Position numbers and translations under genes: made by a program. A stretch of DNA of 64,000 nucleotides, from NCBI RefSeq assembly GCF_044324785.1, contig NZ_CP172127.1, one strand, 5' to 3'. Below the pieces are notes generated by a model, which saw only the letters and a list, made by a program, of their open reading frames with translations, had not been told where the DNA came from and ran no database searches. This document shows positions 22,411 through 32,525 of this stretch, piece by piece; the first letter of the stretch is position 1, and each line of letters starts with the position of its first letter. The stretch comes from Escherichia coli. GTDB lineage: Bacteria > Pseudomonadota > Gammaproteobacteria > Enterobacterales > Enterobacteriaceae.

Positions 22411-25400
22411 TTACTTTACCTCTTGAAATTCAAATGGGAATCCAGTGAAAGGACCTTTAGGCATAATATATCTTTGATATCCATAAAGCTCACCGAGCAC
22501 TTGTAGGCTTATAGGCGCATTTGTATTCATAGAGGGGTTGTTAAACCCGCACGCCTCAAAAATCATGTTCGTTCGGCTAAAACAATTATTTAAAACAGGA
22601 AGAGGCCCGAGGTTAATAGTTTTTAGTTTTTTATTAAGGTCTATTGCCTTATTCATCATACATTGTTCTTCTTCATCTGTTGTATCTATTATCCAAATCC
22701 AGGTATCTCTGCGGGGTTGCATCTTTTTAAAATAATCAGAGACAGAGGCTCCCATCTCATCCCCAGTTCCCGAACTCATTAATCCATATCGATTTGCCGC
22801 CGCAGCATGCCCAAAAGGATTATCAGGAACGGGGCCGTTACCTATTATCATAGTACTAAGCCCTAATGGATCAACGTGTTGCACTGGATTCAGCGGATAT
22901 TGGTACAGATTCCATCCCCCCTTCAGCCCAATCGGGTCCTGGATGATATACCGCCCCTGCAACGGATCGTAGTACCGGTGACGGTTATAATACAGCCCCG
23001 ACTCCTCATCGTGTTGCTGCCCTGGCAGACGGTACGGCTGGTGCAGGTGATGCGGTTTTTCCTCATTCAGCAGGTTTCCCCACTCATCATACTCCCCGCT
23101 CCACGCCGTATTGCCGTCTTCGCTGATGAGCGCCAGCGGCAGGCCCCGGTGGTCGCAGTGGTAAAGATGAACTTTTCGCGCCGGTGTGTATTCCGGCTCC
23201 ACCTGTCTGGCCAGTTGCTCTACCGTCAGCCCGCACTGCGCAAGCCACGCCCGGCTTTCACTGCTCACGCGGTCTGCCCGGATTTCCCCCTCCAGCCTGT
23301 CCAGCATCCTCACAAGTTCTGCCGGGAACACCACACCGTGTCCGTTCTCGCTCCCTTCCTGCTGGAGCTTCTCCGCCAGGCTCCGCCGCTGCGTTTTCTC
23401 CCGCTCGCCGTTGTCTGTTTCGATGCGGATGAGTGGTGTGAAGCTTCCCGGCTCGTATACCGTCTGGATACGTGTGCTGTCGGTCTGCACCGTCGTCAGG
23501 TGGTCGCCGTCCCAGCCGTACCACGTCACCTCCGGTTTACGCGACAGCGACATCCACCCCGTCAGGTCACGTACCCGCCGCCACACCCGTTTACCCGTCC
23601 GGCGGCCCAGCGGGTCGTAGAGGTAGCGGCTCTCCACCTGCGGCTCGCCATGCTGTATCCGCGTGTAGAACACCAGGCGGTGCTGGCTGTCGTAGTGGTA
23701 GTGGTGGGTCCGCTCGTCGTCCGTCCGTATCACACCCGCCGGGATGCGGTCCGTCTTCTCCGTCAGCCTGCCGTATTCATCGTGGCGGTAGACATAGTGC
23801 GCATCCTCCGCGATGCGGTTATCCGGCCACACTGTGAGTGTACTGTCCGGGTGCAGCTCCGGGTCCGGCAGCCGGTTGCCCGCCGGGTCCGTGGCATACG
23901 GGATGCGGATGTCCAGGTCCGGTGCGAGGGTGCGCACACTCTCCAGCCTGCCCGTGGCGCTGTAGCCGTATTCCCGCGTCTGTCGCGGGCCGCTGATGCG
24001 CACCAGGTCGCCGTTGTCATTCCACCCGTAGTCACGGTCATACACCAGGCTGTTCAGGTGCTGGCTCTGTAACTGGCCTGCGGGGGTGTATGTGCTGGTC
24101 AGTTCGTATGCGGCATTACTGCCTGCCATGCTGCCGAAGCTGCGCACCGTCTCCCGGTGCAGCCTGTCCCGCGTATACTCGACCCGCGGCGTCCCGCCCA
24201 GCTTCATGCCCGCCAGGTAACCGCTGCCATACGTCAGCCACTCCACCGGCGGCAGGCTGTCCGGCGTGATGCGGTTTGCCAGCCCCTGCTCGTTGTATGC
24301 GTGTTTCGTCTCATGCTGCCACAGCAGTTCCCCCGTCTCCGGGTTCTCCACCGTCTGGCGTTCGCCGGTCAGGCGGCCTTTATCGTCATAGCCGTAGTGG
24401 ACCGCCACACGGTGGCCTTCACTGATATGGCTGAGGGTGGTTAACCACCCGTGCTCATCATACTGCCACTGCTCTGCCGGGTCGCCGTTCACCGTCCGGT
24501 GCGTGATGCGGTCTGCTTCATCGTAGTACCAGAGGATGACAAGCCCCTCATCTTCACTCTGCGTGAGTTTTCCGGTCAGGTCATAATGATAACGTTGCGT
24601 CCGCCCGTCAAAGCCGCGCTGCTGTACCAGGCGGTCCAGCGCATCGTAGCTGAAGTCGCTGTGACTGCCGTTCTCGTTGGTCAGGCTGATGACACGTCCG
24701 GCAGCATCGTACTCCATACTGCGCGTCAGCCCGCCCTGCGTGGTGCTGACCGCCTTTCCCCACGCATCGTACTGTGTCTCGCTCCGGTTGCCGTCCGGGG
24801 TGATAACGGCAGTCAGGTCGCCTGCGGCGTTGTACTCATACTGCGTTTCACGGCCCTGTGCGTCTTTCACCGAGGTTAACCGGCCACGGTTGTCATAGCG
24901 GCGGTAACGGCTGATACCTTCCTCACGGTGGACCGCCGTCATCTGACCAAAGCGGTCGTATTCATAACGGGTCTGGTAGCCCGAGCAGTCGGTGAACGCC
25001 AGCAACTGCCCGTAGCGGCTCCAGGTCATCTGCCGGGTGCTGCCCGTCGCATCCGTTGTCGTCGCCGGTAATTCACTGTGCGGATTATCATAAGCATACC
25101 GGATGACGTCCCCACTGCGCGATGTCTCCGTTACCAGCCTGCCCGGTTCATCATATGCCCGGCGGCTCTCCAGCCCGTCCGGGGACACCACTGCCGTCAC
25201 CTGGTTCCCGTCGTTATAGTAAAATTTCGTCTCCCGCCCGTCCGGTGTGGTGATGTCCGTGATATCGCCTGACACCACATTCAGACCGTACTCTGTCCGC
25301 CGTCCCGCCGCGTCCGTCTGCGCCGTAAGCCTTCCTGCCGCGTCATACCCGCTGCGCGTGACGCTGCCGTCCGCCAGTTCTTTTTTCACCACCCGTTTCA

Positions 25401-26640
25401 GCCCGCCTTCACCTTCTGTATGCAGCACCTCACGCCGGTTCAGGCTGTCCGTGACGGTGATGCGGTCCTGCTCATACTGGTAGCGGTAACTCAGGCCTGC
25501 CGGGTTCAGCTGCTCCACCACCCGCCCCGCATCGTCGTAGCGGTAGCGCATCTCCGGCCTTCCCGCGTAACGGTGCGCCACCATCCGGCCCGGGTGCTGC
25601 GCGTCATACGTGAAAGCGCGCACCTGCGTATTGCTGCGGTCATATACCGCCAGCAGTTCACCGGCTTCCGTATACGTGTACCGCGCCAGTGGCGCACCGG
25701 GCAGATTCTCCGGGTATGCCGGGTCGTACATCAGCCACACCGCTGAAAGACGGATACCCCTGTCGGGGCCGTATTCCGTACCGGGCAGTGTGTCGGGGAA
25801 AGCTGAGTCTGAAAGAGGGCGGGGGGTGTCAGGGGAAAATAAGGAAGCGGTGTGCTGTTTACGGGCCTCTTCCGCCCGCTGCGCCTGCGTGGTCAGCACC
25901 AGACGGAACTGCCGCCCGGCACCGTCCGTCACGCCGGTGATTTCCCCGGCCAGGTCACCGGCGGCCTCACGCCGGTACGCCAGCGTCCGCCCGAAGCGGT
26001 CTGCCAGCCCGGTAAGCACCCGGTACGGCGGCAGCGGCGCTGGCAGTACGTCCTCAGCACCCGGCACCCGCTCTGACCACCCCAGTATCCACCACGGCCC
26101 CTGTGCGCTGTTGGTCGCCAGGTAAAGATGCGGGCTTAACCGGATATCCGGCGGCAGCGCCCCCCACAGCCGTGCCAGCGTGTGGCCGTCCGGCTGCGCT
26201 GCCTTACCACCGCGCACCAGCCACATTGACTCGCTGCGGCTGTACACCGCCTCACCCGGCAGCAGCGGCTCAAAGTGAATGCTCCGCCCGCCGTTGTCGT
26301 TGAGTATCAGTCCGTCATCACGTAGCTGTAAGCGGATATCAGAAGGCGCTTTCCAGCCGGGGCCGAAAACGCCCACCGGCGCAGGCGTCTTCGTCCGGTA
26401 GCTGCTGTAGGTGCGGGAGAGAATGAACGGCAGCGGGCCGGGCAGCGCAAGGTCCGTCTCGCCGGGCAGCACCTTCGCCCCCAGCAGCGGATTTACCGGG
26501 TTGCCCGAAGTCATCCCGCCCGGACACACCGAGCACGCCACGCCGGTGGGCGCGCCAATTCTTACACCTGCCGAACCCTGGACAATGGGACCGCCATACT
26601 GAGTCATATCTCCCTGACGCGCCGCTGGTTTTCCGCTCAT
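22411..26640 (-). CDS. PAAR-domain Rhs polymorphic toxin (T6SS effector) with AT-rich C-terminal tip of unknown family
   Basis: 1409-aa ORF. N-terminus [31 protein letters not shown] (PAAR-like); long YD-repeat core; the Rhs core ends at DPLGL and is followed by about 150 aa ([25 protein letters not shown]...EFQEVK) encoded by conspicuously AT-rich DNA. Confidence 0.88.
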
Positions 26641-26706
26641 GATTCAATTCCTTCTTCTGTTTATTTTTAATGCTTGTTTGTTACTGAATACCGAACAGGT
26701 ACGGGA

Positions 26707-28815
26707 TCAGTACTCTCTCATATCCGGCGTATCCTGCTTTTCATCAGGGGTCTTCGGTGGGGATTTCGAGGCTGCACAGTTCCAGTTAATCAACAGTGAG
26801 TCACCATTAACCTGCTCCTTACCCTGCAAATGAATTTTTGTGCCGTTGAGAAAAATTTGTCCGTCCTTAGTCAGCACCAGCCTTGCCTTACCACAGCAGA
26901 GTTCCAGATGCTCACCGGCGGAGTAAATCGCGGTCTGCCCGGTATCATCCTTTTTCGTTTTACCAACGGTGAAGGTAACGTTATTTCCGACTTTGACGTC
27001 ATAACCCAGCCCGACCCTCAACGATTTATGCAAACCGATCTGCGAGGACTGCATCAGGGCCACCGAGGTGTTCATAATGCCACCTACCGTCGTCTGATAC
27101 GCCACGCCCACAGTCAGCGCACGCACAAGTCCAATCGTTTCCACCTGAACAGAGCCCACTTTAATGATCTGGTTACTGCCCACCGTCTCTATCTGGTTAA
27201 CACCCACCGTCTGTATCTGATTGTTGGTAACCGCAATCATCTGATTGTTGCCAATGGTCTCAGCATGGTTGTTTATCACATCCGTGGTGCGGTTATTCAG
27301 CACCTCGGTGTTCATATTCTTCTGCGCGTGGATGTAGACCTGTTCTTTCCCTGTCGCATCGTCAAACTTCAGTTCATTAAACCCGCTGCCCTTATAGGTT
27401 TTCGAACGAATGGTCATCTGCGTCTTTGTTCCCGGCAGGCTGCCGGGGGTGCGGTTTTCCTGGTGGTAGGTACGCCCCATAATAATCGGCTGGTCCGGAT
27501 CGCCGTTGAGGAAGTCCACAATGACTTCCTGACCCACACGCGGTATCGCCAGGTTGCCAAAGCCGGTGCCTGCCCACGCCTGTGCCACACGGATCCAGCA
27601 TGAACTGTCCTGGTTTGACGGGTTATAGCGGTCCCAGTTAAATTTCACCCGCACGCGGCCATGTTCATCACAGAAGATTTCTTCTCCTGCCGGTCCCGTC
27701 ACGACGGCGCTCTGCGGGCCGTCCACCAGCGGTTTCAGCAACGGCTGTGGCCGCCATGTCCGGTCTGCCGGTATTACCGCAAAGTGGTTATTCAGCGTGG
27801 TACCTGAACCCCTGCGTCCCGGCACCGCCTGCGGCTGCTCGCCGTGCAGTTCACTTGCCACCACCTGCCATTCCCGGTTCAGGCTCGCCTGCGGATGCCC
27901 CGTCAGCGCAATTCGCCGTCCCGGCCATATCTCCGGCGAACGGCTTGTTCCGCGCGCCACTTCTGCGTTGTTTCGCCAGCCATCCATCTGCCAGCAGGCA
28001 AAGTTCTGCCCGTGGGCACCCTTGAAACGTCCGGGGTAGTCATACACTTCATACTGTGTGCGCTGGTAATCCTGGTGCTGGCCTTCCTGATCAAAACGCC
28101 CTGCCCAGCCGGGTCGTTTAAAGGTGTAGTCTTTGGTCACCACGGAAGATGGGCGGATTTGTGCGCTGTAGCGGAACTGGCTGATGCAGAGGGTGCTCAC
28201 CTCGGTACGGGTGTTCGGATTCCAGGGGATCTCAAAGGACTCCGGCAGATAACGCACGGTGTCGCACAGGACCAGGCTCTGGTCGGTACTTTTTTGCGCG
28301 TGCTCCTCATAAAAGAAGATGCCTTCCTCCGCCGCCATCCGGCACAGGAAATCGTAATCAGTTTCGCCGTACTGGACACAAAACTCACGGGAAGGATGCG
28401 GCTCGCTGAACAGCGGACTCCACTCGGTCACCCCGTTTTCTTTCAGGATCGTCGCGAGGATGCTTTCGATGTCCTCATTCTGGAAGATACGGAAGTTCTG
28501 GCGCAGCCCTGTGCGCCACAGCGGTGGGCACACCTTCATGCTGTACAGCATCTGGTTTTTGTCGTTCTCCCCCAGTTCAAACCAGGTCACCACACCTTTC
28601 ACCCGGCGCTGTACGTCATCGCCCTGCCATACCGTCAGGTAGGCCATTTTGTCCAGCACCTGCGCAAATTCAAGGGAGAGAAACTGCTGGCTGACCAGAG
28701 AGAGATCGAGGGAAAAGAGCGAAGAGAGTGACTGGTTCAGATGAAAGGAGACCACCGCAAACGTGTCCGGTGGCAGGCCGTCCACTTCCAGCGTGAAACG
28801 TAATCCGGTTGACAT
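26707..28815 (-). CDS. vgrG: T6SS spike protein VgrG (TssI)
   Basis: 702-aa ORF MSTGLRFTLEVDGLPPDTFAVVSFHLNQSLSSLFSLDLSLVS... with gp27/gp5-like regions and a C-terminal repetitive beta segment. Confidence 0.9.
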   Translation of the reverse strand: MSTGLRFTLEVDGLPPDTFAVVSFHLNQSLSSLFSLDLSLVSQQFLSLEFAQVLDKMAYLTVWQGDDVQRRVKGVVTWFELGENDKNQMLYSMKVCPPLWRTGLRQNFRIFQNEDIESILATILKENGVTEWSPLFSEPHPSREFCVQYGETDYDFLCRMAAEEGIFFYEEHAQKSTDQSLVLCDTVRYLPESFEIPWNPNTRTEVSTLCISQFRYSAQIRPSSVVTKDYTFKRPGWAGRFDQEGQHQDYQRTQYEVYDYPGRFKGAHGQNFACWQMDGWRNNAEVARGTSRSPEIWPGRRIALTGHPQASLNREWQVVASELHGEQPQAVPGRRGSGTTLNNHFAVIPADRTWRPQPLLKPLVDGPQSAVVTGPAGEEIFCDEHGRVRVKFNWDRYNPSNQDSSCWIRVAQAWAGTGFGNLAIPRVGQEVIVDFLNGDPDQPIIMGRTYHQENRTPGSLPGTKTQMTIRSKTYKGSGFNELKFDDATGKEQVYIHAQKNMNTEVLNNRTTDVINNHAETIGNNQMIAVTNNQIQTVGVNQIETVGSNQIIKVGSVQVETIGLVRALTVGVAYQTTVGGIMNTSVALMQSSQIGLHKSLRVGLGYDVKVGNNVTFTVGKTKKDDTGQTAIYSAGEHLELCCGKARLVLTKDGQIFLNGTKIHLQGKEQVNGDSLLINWNCAASKSPPKTPDEKQDTPDMREY

Positions 28816-28977
28816 AGCAACCTCCGGGTTTAAGGAAAAACAGACAGTTCGCTGTTAAAGCGGCTGTGACAGTACAGTGTTACGCTTGCGTTCAGGCACG
28901 CTACCGCCGAAGTTTCCGGCATCCGCCATCTCCCGTGAACGTACCCCCTTACTGACAACCTTTCTTTTTACGGCGTA

Positions 28978-29014
28978 ATACAAAAACAGCATCCGGCCTG
29001 ATAGCCGGATGCTG
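28978..29014 (-). terminator. Rho-independent terminator/attenuator between hcp and vgrG
   Basis: Perfect inverted repeat cagcatccggc-ctgata-gccggatgctg immediately downstream of the hcp stop; on the minus strand it is followed by TTTTTTG. Confidence 0.5.
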
Positions 29015-29024
29015 TTGGCTTAAC

Positions 29025-29543
29025 TTATGCTTCCAGCGGTGCGCGCCAGTCGTCGGCACCAGAGGTGCCAGACTTGACGTGTTCCCACTCTATTTTGCGG
29101 TAGGCCAGTGAAACTTCGAGCAACTGGGTGAACTCGCGTTTCGCCGGATCCTGGCAATGCGGCATATGCAGTTTCATATCGACAATCGTCGAATCGGTCA
29201 GGCGGGTGGTGAAATAATGCTCCTGTTTGCCTTCCACAGAGGTACGCCACCAGTGAAGTTCAGTGGTTGGCAGCATTTCGCCGGAGGCCAGTGCGTTGTA
29301 CATCAGCGGAACAGCTTTGTTCAGCGCCACGGTAAAAATGAACGGCTTGTGAGCACGCTGACCCGCAGGCTGGCCGGACTGAGGATCTGTCGGGACAGTA
29401 ACGTTATGCAGGAATTCCTGCACCAGCATCTCGTCTTCGTGCCCCTGCACATAGATGTTGCCGACAGAATCAGCGGTAAATGCACCTGCAGTAATATTTC
29501 CCTGGGTCTGACCAGTGATGGAGATATAACACGGTGTTGGCAT
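29025..29543 (-). CDS. hcp: T6SS tube protein Hcp (TssD)
   Basis: 172-aa ORF MPTPCYISITGQTQGNITAGAFTADSVGNIYVQGHEDEMLVQEF..., Hcp1 family. Confidence 0.9.
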   Translation of the reverse strand: MPTPCYISITGQTQGNITAGAFTADSVGNIYVQGHEDEMLVQEFLHNVTVPTDPQSGQPAGQRAHKPFIFTVALNKAVPLMYNALASGEMLPTTELHWWRTSVEGKQEHYFTTRLTDSTIVDMKLHMPHCQDPAKREFTQLLEVSLAYRKIEWEHVKSGTSGADDWRAPLEA

Positions 29544-30239
29544 TTGTAAACTCCTTGTTAACGTGGTTAATTACTACTTACAATGACCTGCCGTTAATCC
29601 CAGACAGGCAGATGCAGCTCACTTCACGGAACCGCATCATTTTTCAGTATTTTTTACATACAAACCGAGCTAGAATTTACGGTTGTCGTAAAAACTATTT
29701 TTAAAATCATTAAATCTCTTATTCAGCAATAACTTAATAATATATATCTGGATAACCATACCCAACTGTTCAAAGTCCGTATTGCCTCCATAAAATGGCC
29801 AAAACTGAATCATGAATAAATATTGTATTTATCCTTTATGAATTATCATTTTGATAATTTTTGAGATATTCCTTAAAAATACCCACTTAATCAATCACAA
29901 AACAAATATATAAACAAGCAATCATCAGATTAGCTTATGTTTAATGAAATTATTGTATAATTCAATAAGTTATATAAAAACTCTATATTTAAATTATTGC
30001 CATAATACACCTGACGCGAATTGCAAAGGTTCACACAATCTATTTAACGCTTGCAGAATACCCCTCTTTACGATCGATAAAAAGTCCTTTTCTTATTTAT
30101 TTTGAAGCGTAGAATGCGGGGTGATGAAGGAGTGGTGATTTTATTTTCACCGCCATTAGGGCGGCATTGCCGATATTTTTTTGCGGTACAAATATGCCGT
30201 GTTCATGGCCTGTACGAGATAACATGACGGATCACTTTT
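29544..30239. promoter_or_regulatory. AT-rich divergent control region between hcp (minus) and tssB (plus)
   Basis: About 700 bp non-coding and very AT-rich; contains a Fur-box-like motif aattatcattttgataatt (29841-29859) and a GATC site near 30072. Confidence 0.45.
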
Positions 30240-30740
30240 ATGAGCAAAAAATTTGAAGGCAGCGTCGCGCCTCGCGAGCGTATAAATATATCCTATGTCC
30301 CGAAGACAGACGGCCAGACGGCTGAAGTGGAGCTTCCGCTTAACATGCTCGTTGTCGGCGATACCGGAAATACGCAGGAGACATCCCCACTGGATGAACG
30401 TCAGGCAGTTTCCGTTAACAAGCACAATTTCGGTGCGGTGATGGCTGAAGCAGCCATTGGCCTCAATTTTACCGTCCCCGCCACGCTGAAGGGAAGCACA
30501 ACGGACGATGAACTGAATGTGGCGCTGAATATCAAATCACTGGATGATTTTTCACCAGATAGCGTGGCCCGGCAGGTTCCGGAAGTGAATAAATTGCTGG
30601 AACTGCGTGAAGCACTGACTGCACTGAAGGGGCCGATGGGTAACCTTCCGGCATTCCGTACCCAGCTCCAGGCATTGCTGGAAAATGAAGAGTCCCGCGA
30701 GCAGTTGCTCAAAGAAATCGGCCGGGTGAGCAATAAATAA
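30240..30740 (+). CDS. tssB: T6SS contractile sheath small subunit TssB (VipA/ImpB)
   Basis: 166-aa ORF MSKKFEGSVAPRERINISYVPKTDGQTAEVELPLNMLVVGD... Confidence 0.9.
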   Translation: MSKKFEGSVAPRERINISYVPKTDGQTAEVELPLNMLVVGDTGNTQETSPLDERQAVSVNKHNFGAVMAEAAIGLNFTVPATLKGSTTDDELNVALNIKSLDDFSPDSVARQVPEVNKLLELREALTALKGPMGNLPAFRTQLQALLENEESREQLLKEIGRVSNK

Positions 30741-30774
30741 CCACCACTATTTCATTAAACAGGGTTATCCAGGC

Positions 30775-30999
30775 ATGACGGCACACAAAAATATCTCCGG
30801 GACATACCACCTCTCTGTTGCAGACATTCTGCAGGTGGTTTACCAGGTATGTTTCAGCCCGTCCGTTGAAATCAACCAGGATGGTGTGGCTGCGCTGATT
30901 ACAACACTGGATCGCCGTATCAGTGATCTATTGGATGAGATTATCCATTTTTGTGAGTTTCAGCAGAGCGCGTCGCACTGGCAGCGCGTACTTCACTGA
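30775..30999 (+). CDS. Small ORF resembling the TssC N-terminal region (possible gene remnant or accessory mini-protein)
   Basis: 74-aa ORF; ...NQDGVAALITTLDRRISDLLDEIIHFCEFQQSASHWQRV aligns with TssC residues ...NKLAVDSMIADIDERISRQMDVIIHAPAFQQVESFWRSL from the adjacent tssC. Confidence 0.4.
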   Translation: MTAHKNISGTYHLSVADILQVVYQVCFSPSVEINQDGVAALITTLDRRISDLLDEIIHFCEFQQSASHWQRVLH

Positions 31000-31049
31000 T
31001 GGCGAAAAGCCGGTTTCAGACACACAGCTAAAACAGAAGGATTTTCAGT

Positions 31050-32525
31050 ATGTCTTTACAGGAAGAGGAACTCGTTTCCAGTCATGCCGGGCAGCCTGAG
31101 CAGGCATCGTCGCTGCTTGATCAAATCATGGCACAGACCCGTATTCAGCCCGGTTCGGAAGGTTATGACGTTGCCCGCCAGGGTGTGACAGCCTTTATTG
31201 CCAGCATCCTGCAATCCACTGCATCTGCCGAACCGGTCAATAAACTGGCCGTGGACAGCATGATTGCAGATATTGATGAACGCATCAGCCGCCAGATGGA
31301 TGTCATCATCCATGCGCCTGCCTTTCAGCAGGTCGAGTCGTTCTGGCGCTCACTGAAAACCATGGTGGATCGCGTTGATTTCCGTGAAAACATCAAGGTC
31401 AACGTGCTTCATGTCACCAAGCAGGAACTTCTGGAAGACTTTGAGTTTGCGCCAGAAATTATTCAGTCCGGATTTTATAAGCACGTTTATTCGTCCGGTT
31501 TCGGACAGTTTGGCGGTGAACCCATCGCTGCCGTGCTGGGCGCTTATGAGTTCAAAAATACCGCGCCTGACATGAAACTACTGCAATACGTCAGTGCCGT
31601 GGGCGCAATGGCGCACGCACCGTTCCTGTCCTCCGTTTCCCCGGAGTTTATGGGGCTGAACTCGTGGACCGAACTGCCTAATATCAAAGAGCTTTATGCC
31701 ATCTTTGAAGGTCCGGCCTACACCAAATGGCGCGCTCTGCGTGACTCGGAAGATTCGCGCTATTTAGGGCTTACGGCACCCCGCTTCCTGCTTCGCCAGC
31801 CTTATTCACCAACAGATAACCCTGTTAAGAACTTTAACTATCACGAAGATGTCAGCCGGAACCACGAAGATTATCTGTGGGGTAATACGGCCTGGATGCT
31901 GGCATGCAATATCGCAGACAGTTTTGCCAAATACCGTTGGTGTCCAAACATCATCGGCCCGCAAAGCGGCGGCGCAGTGAAAGATCTGCCGGTGCATCTG
32001 TTCGAAACGATGGGTCAGATTCAGGCCAAAATCCCAACCGAGGTGCTGGTCACCGATCGCCGCGAATTTGAACTGGCTGAAGAGGGTTTTATCACCCTTA
32101 CCATGCGTAAAGACTCTGATAATGCAGCCTTTTTCTCTGCAAACTCGGTACAAAAACCGAAGCACTTTCCGGGTAAAGACGCAGAAACCAACTATAAGTT
32201 GGGTACGCAGCTTCCTTATCTCTTCATCATTAATCGGTTAGCGCACTACATCAAGGTGTTGCAGCGTGAACAACTGGGGTCATGGAAAGAAAGGAGCGAC
32301 TTAGAGAGGGAGCTTAATACCTGGATCCGTCAGTATGTTGCCGACCAGGAAAACCCGCCTGCGGACGTGCGCAGCCGCAAGCCTCTGCGTGCTGCCAGAG
32401 TTGAGGTTATGGATGTGGAGGGCGAACCCGGCTGGTACCAGGTCGCGCTGAGCGTGCGGCCCCATTTTAAATTTATGGGGGCAAACTTTGAGCTTTCCCT
32501 GGTTGGCCGGTTAGACAGGGAGTAA
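31050..32525 (+). CDS. tssC: T6SS contractile sheath large subunit TssC (VipB/ImpC)
   Basis: 491-aa ORF with agaagga RBS; MSLQEEELVSSHAGQPEQASSLLDQIMAQTRIQPGSEGYDVARQG... Confidence 0.92.
   Translation: MSLQEEELVSSHAGQPEQASSLLDQIMAQTRIQPGSEGYDVARQGVTAFIASILQSTASAEPVNKLAVDSMIADIDERISRQMDVIIHAPAFQQVESFWRSLKTMVDRVDFRENIKVNVLHVTKQELLEDFEFAPEIIQSGFYKHVYSSGFGQFGGEPIAAVLGAYEFKNTAPDMKLLQYVSAVGAMAHAPFLSSVSPEFMGLNSWTELPNIKELYAIFEGPAYTKWRALRDSEDSRYLGLTAPRFLLRQPYSPTDNPVKNFNYHEDVSRNHEDYLWGNTAWMLACNIADSFAKYRWCPNIIGPQSGGAVKDLPVHLFETMGQIQAKIPTEVLVTDRREFELAEEGFITLTMRKDSDNAAFFSANSVQKPKHFPGKDAETNYKLGTQLPYLFIINRLAHYIKVLQREQLGSWKERSDLERELNTWIRQYVADQENPPADVRSRKPLRAARVEVMDVEGEPGWYQVALSVRPHFKFMGANFELSLVGRLDRE

Follow-up and report, generated by a model that had tools for sequence, protein, structure and literature searches.

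How does transcription pass from the gene of a type VI secretion (T6SS) tube protein to the genes of the spike and the effector that follow it? The question is raised by the chromosomal T6SS island beside yafV, which is contained in the window analysed here, a 64,000-nt stretch of Escherichia coli DNA. Islands of this yafV-adjacent type have been named the T6SS-2 family in a recent paper on EHEC (Vazquez-Lopez et al., Microbiol Spectr 2026, PMC13141884). According to the list of open reading frames, three genes follow one another on the minus strand of the window: hcp (tssD; 29025..29543), which encodes the 172-aa tube protein, vgrG (26707..28815, with its ATG at 28815), which encodes the 702-aa spike, and an rhs effector gene (22411..26640; 1409 aa). 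The tssB operon diverges from hcp and runs on the plus strand from 30240. The identity of Hcp follows from a Pfam match (T6SS_HCP, E=5e-31) and from the RefSeq annotation of a 99.5% identical genome; VgrG has the Pfam domains Phage_GPD, Phage_base_V and Gp5_trimer_C (gpD, OB and gp5_C), and Rhs has RHS_repeat, RHS and DUF6531. Between hcp and vgrG lies a spacer of 209 nt, and it is here that the initial annotation noticed a strong hairpin with a T-run and proposed that partial termination at this site gives high Hcp and lower VgrG and Rhs.

As for its position, that proposal is borne out: the hairpin lies on the transcribed (minus) strand just past the hcp stop codon and upstream of vgrG-rhs, the three flanking genes being confirmed by Pfam. 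From the stop codon TAA (29027..29025, minus strand), an 8-nt linker, GUUAAGCC (29017..29024), leads to the base of the stem, and the hairpin itself occupies 28985..29016 on the same strand, with 14 pairs and the loop AUCA. Read along the minus strand from 29016 to 28985, its DNA is AACAGCATCCGGCT-ATCA-GGCCGGATGCTGTT followed by TTTGTATTAC, which as RNA becomes AACAGCAUCCGGCU-AUCA-GGCCGGAUGCUGUU followed by UUUGUAUUAC. The perfect stem of 11 bp described at first is the core of a longer one, which can be drawn either as 13 perfect Watson-Crick pairs around a 6-nt loop or as 14 pairs with a closing U.G and a 4-nt loop; G-C pairs account for 8 of the 14. The U-tract UUUUUGUAUUAC (28975..28986, minus strand) begins with two U that pair with AA at the stem base, and U fills 8 of the 10 positions of the hairpin tail, UUUUUGUAUU. 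The run of six T originally reported (TTTTTTG) has to be corrected to five (28986..28982), followed by G.

The hairpin is far more stable than expected from its composition. RNAfold gives −25.2 kcal/mol for the bare element and −27.8 kcal/mol with its flanks, compared with −13.4 ± 2.9 kcal/mol for shuffled sequences (z = −5.0), none of 200 shuffles being equally stable. The hairpin pattern occurs once in the window, against an expectation of 0.00, and no other hairpin in the 64 kb has at least 11 perfect pairs, 0.15 being expected per simulated 64 kb. A generic terminator scan of the 24-34 kb region revealed no overall enrichment (10 sites found, 9.2 expected), and the hcp-vgrG site was by far the strongest among them. 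Read on the plus strand, the hairpin precedes GGCUUAAC and lacks a U tail, so that termination is possible in the hcp-sense direction only and a bidirectional terminator is ruled out. Thus, the element shows the features of a Rho-independent terminator: a stable GC-rich stem-loop, a U-rich tract directly 3′ of it, a location on the same strand past the end of hcp and a stem kept by compensatory substitutions.

These substitutions emerged from a comparison of homologous loci. An Hcp protein scan with one genome per species yielded 80 loci whose Hcp is 81-100% identical, and in nearly all of them a hairpin directly follows the hcp stop codon. Under a strict rule (5 or more pairs in a perfect stem, 5 or more T among 8 positions, and a start within 60 nt of the stop), a terminator-like site was present in 53 of the 78 non-redundant loci, as opposed to 3.9% of random windows of the same loci. 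Hairpins homologous to the one in the window are represented by 23 sequences from about 20 enterobacterial species or genera. In this set, 8 of the 14 pairs have undergone compensatory double changes and pairing is kept in 93.4% of cells; such values did not arise in any of 500 shuffles, and sliding the register left only 35-58% paired. The outer stem (ACAGCAU/AUGCUGU) is nearly invariant, the inner stem and the loop vary, and the T columns past the stem are again invariant or nearly so. Identity to the window amounts to 79% in stem columns and 37% in loop columns, the figure for hcp four-fold degenerate sites being 53%. Judging from this pattern of substitutions, selection acts on the structure of the hairpin, not on its sequence.

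Within E. coli, a 53-nt query covering the element finds a match in 2193 of 5426 complete genomes, at exactly one place in each, and O157:H7 carries it with 100% identity. The layout recurs, with a compensated stem, in another T6SS variant of E. coli, that of strain AST217. In another strain, E. coli 23CRST024 (L084, 1319-2946), a truncated tssD (hcp) is fused straight into a partial RHS gene, a natural deletion having removed vgrG and most of the spacer, the terminator hairpin included. The distance from stop codon to stem is 5-18 nt in the 30 closest homologous loci, with a median of 9. The spacer as a whole is much less constant in length. In 12 homologous loci it measures at most 100 nt, and the class of 67-84 nt (L031, L025, L015, L017, L020-L023 and L063) is devoid of the conserved non-coding block described below and has the hairpin immediately in front of the vgrG ATG. 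In one of these loci, that of Enterobacter asburiae (L031, 3020-3090), the U8 tail of the hairpin ends about 18 nt before the vgrG ATG; hence every vgrG transcript there must cross the hairpin. The U-rich tail itself is absent from the hairpin in 7 of the 12 short-spacer loci, for example in Rahnella (L020, L023) and Lelliottia (L015). A different arrangement is seen in Dickeya, Pectobacterium, Siccibacter and one Enterobacter (L035, L039, L040, L044, L057, L059, L070, L074, L076, L078 and L081), where the short terminator of hcp (CCCGG..CCGGGUUUU) precedes another conserved hairpin, UGCUGAG...CUGAGCA, which lies about 35-90 nt past the hcp stop and is unrelated to the E. coli block. The comparison thus adds three points: selection has maintained the stem in about 20 genera, its stop-adjacent position is kept, and gammaproteobacterial loci with an Hcp of this type have, as a rule, a terminator-like hairpin directly behind hcp.

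The element itself is not new, and among bacterial terminators it is of the most commonplace kind. In EHEC O157:H7 EDL933, the hcp3-vgrG3 spacer has been named h3R and subdivided: region I is a hairpin of 32 nt and 14 pairs, located at +8 past the stop and predicted to be a terminator, region II is a predicted promoter, and region III is the vgrG3 5′ UTR (PMC13141884). Our alignment with NZ_CP008957 shows that the hairpin, the U-run and the 8-nt linker of region I are base-for-base identical to those of the window; their position in the T6SS-2 island is also the same, with tssB divergent and on the yafV side. The window nevertheless comes from another E. coli strain, which departs from EDL933 at 5 other positions of the 209-nt spacer, in the C-terminus of its vgrG and in its rhs.

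The published dissection of h3R was made on this identical hairpin and U-run. Deletion of region I, or of regions I and II, lowered hcp3 mRNA to 6% and Hcp3 protein to about 50%, and the same deletions in a gfp-h3R-mCherry construct halved GFP and doubled mCherry (PMC13141884). These phenotypes indicate a twofold action: transcription is terminated, or at the least blocked, and the upstream message is stabilised, both as one would expect of an intrinsic terminator. The reporter result moreover implies that termination in that construct is nearer 50% than 100%. End-point RT-PCR in wild-type EHEC gave no hcp3-vgrG3 junction product; from plasmids, junction RNA was faint with an intact spacer, stronger with region I deleted and stronger still with regions I and II deleted (PMC13141884). 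The last step shows that something beyond the hairpin also blocks transcription. When an inducible promoter that had been put in place of the native divergent one upstream of hcp3 was induced, vgrG3 mRNA rose, although "not as high as hcp3", and VgrG3 protein stayed undetectable even with the arabinose- or IPTG-inducible AraBAD or Lac promoters driving hcp3 (PMC13141884). Read-through is thus insufficient for VgrG production. Deletion of hns likewise raised vgrG3 mRNA, and the isolated spacer reporter was unresponsive to hns (PMC13141884). Taken together with the comparative data, the hairpin and U-run between hcp and vgrG are a real, evolutionarily conserved intrinsic terminator and mRNA stabiliser.

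How much passes this terminator is a separate matter. We favour, with a probability of about 0.6, a leaky terminator at which most hcp transcripts end and from which a minority read through into vgrG. The hairpin and its U-tract would then act as a one-directional Rho-independent terminator 8 nt past the hcp stop, and most transcripts from the hcp promoter would end at the U-tract. The 3′ hairpin left on them would shield hcp mRNA from 3′-to-5′ decay, allowing the Hcp message and protein to accumulate, and a minority of polymerases would pass into the leader of about 170 nt, into vgrG and onwards to rhs. In EHEC vgrG is under-transcribed relative to hcp, and read-through would be the main source of what vgrG mRNA there is. 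What speaks for the leak is the rise of vgrG3 mRNA upon induction of the hcp promoter and in the hns deletion, the lack of a sense TSS in the spacer by Cappable-seq, homologues whose terminator closely precedes the vgrG ATG, and a stem so near the stop codon that ribosomes may suppress termination. If the behaviour of the lambda terminator tR2 is a guide, the leak would grow with tight coupling of hcp translation to transcription and shrink without it. In its general form, the dosage effect put forward in the initial annotation survives, since deletion of the identical EHEC hairpin shows that it lowers transcription into vgrG. Termination is, however, not the whole of it. Much of the effect on Hcp is mRNA stabilisation by the 3′ hairpin, as the loss of all but 6% of hcp3 mRNA indicates, and regions II and III together with post-transcriptional control contribute to low VgrG. 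The extension to Rhs needs a similar qualification. In EDL933, rhs has a mapped transcription start site (TSS) of its own at 267066, 13 nt upstream of the rhs/PAAR start at 267079, detected in 5 of 8 conditions (PMC10469882), so that the dosage of Rhs is not set by the hcp terminator alone. If the two genomes are colinear, this TSS falls at about 26653 of the window.

The EHEC authors read the same spacer as the boundary between separate operons, with a complete terminator and an independent, conditionally active promoter in region II that serves vgrG-rhs; where they see two operons, we take their own qPCR as evidence of a leak. We consider two operons possible but a good deal less probable than a leak. 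The negative junction RT-PCR in wild-type EHEC and a strong hairpin with U in 8 of 10 tail positions would suit a complete terminator, yet its deletion merely doubled mCherry, and vgrG3 mRNA follows induction of the upstream promoter. As to a promoter of its own for vgrG, software places one in region II (BPROM, Sapphire and Virtual Footprint, including transcription-factor sites), but all spacer reporters stood behind the Trc promoter, and among the media supplements tested only stachyose raised the reporter, by less than 2-fold (PMC13141884). Our promoter scan found no sigma-70-like site on the minus strand of the hcp-vgrG spacer, which is the strand of vgrG, and inspection by eye revealed no −10/−35 or sigma-54 pattern in its conserved columns. 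The strongly conserved block of about 95 nt could nonetheless carry regulator sites or hide a regulated promoter of a type outside the coverage of the scan, and V. cholerae offers a reported precedent for a separate vgrG promoter. Cappable-seq of EDL933 under 8 conditions detected no sense TSS between hcp +27 and vgrG +177; those near the junction lie only within coding sequence, at 264161 (hcp +27) and 265039 (vgrG +177), which correspond to 29516 and 28638 on the minus strand of the window (PMC10469882). In the same data the tssB TSS appeared in 8 of 8 conditions and the rhs TSS was found as well, whereas a canonical hcp TSS appeared in none of the 8 (PMC10469882). The missing spacer TSS is for this reason weak evidence, since the H-NS-silenced locus is hardly expressed and the hcp TSS was not seen either. 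In the short-spacer homologues there is no room for a promoter past the hairpin.

The other readings of the hairpin have less in their favour. That it is nothing but an RNA-stability element, a barrier to 3′ exonucleases that may act after processing of a long hcp-vgrG transcript and adds little to termination, with differential decay setting the Hcp:VgrG ratio, seems to us unlikely. The drop of hcp3 mRNA after deletion of region I and the halving of GFP in a heterologous reporter agree with such a barrier, but junction RNA and the downstream reporter both rise without the element. Similarly, the tailless hairpins of 7 of the 12 short-spacer homologues would suit it, whereas in the E. coli-type family the U-run, which a pure stability hairpin does not need, is nearly invariant and the element is built like a canonical intrinsic terminator. 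A classical regulated attenuator, in which an antiterminator structure, a leader peptide or a ligand switches read-through, is very improbable. The word attenuation comes from the initial annotation. The conserved block does show that the spacer is under selection, but, lying downstream of the terminator, it is unable to serve as an antiterminator. When the fold was extended by 150 nt of upstream hcp, the MFE and centroid structures both retained the terminator hairpin and showed no competing pairing; the upstream reading frame is full-length hcp, not a leader peptide; and no Rfam family, cis-regulatory ones included, matched at E ≤ 1 in 26000-31500. As there is no alternative antiterminator structure, the element is better described as a constitutive leaky terminator than as a regulated attenuator. 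We give almost no credence to a dispersed repeat of the REP/BIME kind or to a chance palindrome with no specific role at the locus. The 3′ arm of the hairpin (28987-28995, minus strand) contains GCCGGATGC, which we take to resemble the core of the E. coli REP consensus. Yet the element occurs in one place per genome rather than in many copies, both in the 2193 matching genomes and in the window; its stem has undergone compensatory evolution across genera, with different inner-stem sequences in other genera; and the expectation of 0.15 such hairpins per 64 kb speaks against chance.

A leaky terminator of this kind has relatives among better-known systems. In papA-type pilus operons, a 3′ hairpin after the major subunit gene leads to excess subunit mRNA. 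The excess in pap is for the most part a product of RNase E processing and of unequal mRNA stability, and the system is unrelated to hcp. What the two share is a logic, with a repeated structural subunit first, then a stabilising or terminating hairpin, and minor tip components downstream. Closer in anatomy are canonical intrinsic terminators that act as partial terminators within operons, which likewise consist of a GC-rich stem-loop and a U-tract past a stop codon. Such intergenic partial terminators have been discussed as setters of the upstream:downstream expression ratio (PMC4824070); the hcp hairpin differs from them in lying unusually near the stop codon, at 8 nt.

Other hcp-vgrG pairs give a mixed picture. 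In the hcp-vgrG effector operons of Proteus mirabilis, RT-PCR across the junction was positive (Alteri et al., PLoS Pathog 2013, PMC3764213), which means that the genes are co-transcribed. The corresponding locus in our set (L037) encodes an Hcp 84% identical to that of the window and has a hairpin with a U-rich tail after hcp, but its spacer is 393 nt long and unrelated. In the orphan hcp-vgrG clusters of V. cholerae, vgrG is reported to be transcribed separately from hcp (Zhang et al., BBRC 2021). The gene pair is the same as in E. coli, with hcp reportedly uncoupled from vgrG at the transcript level; the vgrG promoter reported there is regulated by IHF and HapR, while the promoter in the E. 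coli spacer is a predicted one, and the spacer sequences are unrelated, judging by the Vibrionaceae loci compared here, those of Photobacterium. For the V. cholerae hcp-1 cluster, one promoter and one terminator have been predicted for the whole cluster (PMC3166118).

The closeness of the hairpin to the stop codon suggests a further layer of control. With the stem only 8 nt past the stop, a ribosome finishing hcp can overlap its 5′ arm. The lambda terminator tR2, placed in E. coli a few bp after a stop codon, is nearly fully repressed: its efficiency stays under 10% at a distance of 5 bp and climbs to about 0.9 past 30 bp, and uncoupling of translation abolishes the repression (Li et al., NAR 2016, PMC4824070). 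The hcp hairpin lies within the distance range in which a trailing ribosome represses tR2; the measurements were made on another terminator, a single one from a phage, in a synthetic reporter. The tR2 distance curve is moreover sequence-dependent, efficiency at 17-18 bp being either 0.12 or 0.8 (PMC4824070), so that no number can be transferred to the hcp hairpin. By analogy, a ribosome finishing hcp should weaken the terminator and thereby tie the leak to hcp translation.

Taking this one step further, we tentatively suggest a two-step checkpoint, in which a translation-gated valve, set by a stop-to-stem distance of 5-18 nt in every close homologue, is combined with the block of about 95 nt as a second control element. 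The ribosome terminating on hcp would suppress closure of the hairpin, and polymerases would enter vgrG-rhs only during active translation of hcp, for example once CsrA-type repression of hcp has been lifted. The read-through RNA would then meet the block at 28958..28865 as a second control. Were this true, synthesis of spike and toxin would be licensed only once tube protein is being made.

This conserved non-coding block is the most interesting by-product of the analysis, and a more useful lead than the hairpin. It spans about 95 nt on the minus strand (28865..28958; TGTCAGTAAGGGG..GGCGGTAGCGTGCCTGAA..CGTAACACTGTACTG), inside h3R regions II and III. Across about 20 genera it is 77% identical on average, which is near the level of hcp coding sequence and compares with 53% at hcp four-fold sites. 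Both of its flanks, one just after the terminator and the other in the 50 nt before the vgrG Shine-Dalgarno sequence, are scrambled between genera; in the window, the variable leader part occupies 28816..28864 (minus strand) and is scrambled among genera except for the Shine-Dalgarno GGAGG (28825..28821), 5 nt 5′ of the ATG. The nhmmer matches to the block comprise 22 loci, always 65-75 nt after the hcp stop, and 2762 E. coli genomes each contain a single copy of it; the loci of Photobacterium (Vibrionaceae) among those compared are without it. In EHEC, the part of h3R that overlaps the block was found to be inhibitory to vgrG3 (PMC13141884).

We considered several identities for this block. 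Among 22 candidate pairs there was 1 compensatory change, against 1.4 in shuffles, with a score equal to the shuffled mean, and the folding energy of the spacer was no better than that of shuffles (z = +1.1). A structured RNA was consequently rejected, the RNAalifold model having neither covariation support nor excess stability, nor any Rfam match. A small coding gene was rejected as well, both for a 24-codon ORF starting ATGGCGGAT and for a 45-codon ORF (window 28855-28992, minus strand) whose ATG lies inside the 3′ arm of the hairpin. Codon periodicity is absent (0.21/0.18/0.19), the start codon is lost in one locus (L008), and stops or indels break the frame in five further genera, so that the substitution pattern is a non-coding one. 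The 45-codon ORF is RS01235 of the 2017 EDL933 annotation and is absent from the current RefSeq version; the EHEC paper probably refers to it as 'EDL933_0238'. Of the two or three GGA motifs that the block conserves, the best one placed in a hairpin loop (GGC-GGAU-GCC) is lost in several genera and in EDL933; a CsrA site here is speculation.

A TSS does map to the block, on the opposite strand. The antisense TSS at EDL933 264783, on the minus strand there, was detected by Cappable-seq in 5 of 8 conditions and was significantly regulated in one contrast (PMC10469882, Tables S4 and S6). Its equivalent in the window is 28894 on the plus strand, a coordinate mapping that we checked on the sequence. 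A −10-like TACGCT (28881..28886) falls in the conserved block, and the proposed −35, GTTAAA, 21 nt away, falls in the variable part. An RNA started here would contain the complement of the hairpin and continue into hcp in antisense orientation. The site may also be one of the many spurious TSSs of H-NS-silenced DNA.

Overall, the task that the hairpin performs is a textbook one, for the tube requires far more of its highly repeated subunit than the secretion system does of a three-copy spike. Since VgrG is never made, the choice between a leak through the hcp terminator and an operon of its own for vgrG is relevant to the question of why the T6SS-2 of E. coli resists activation under laboratory conditions.
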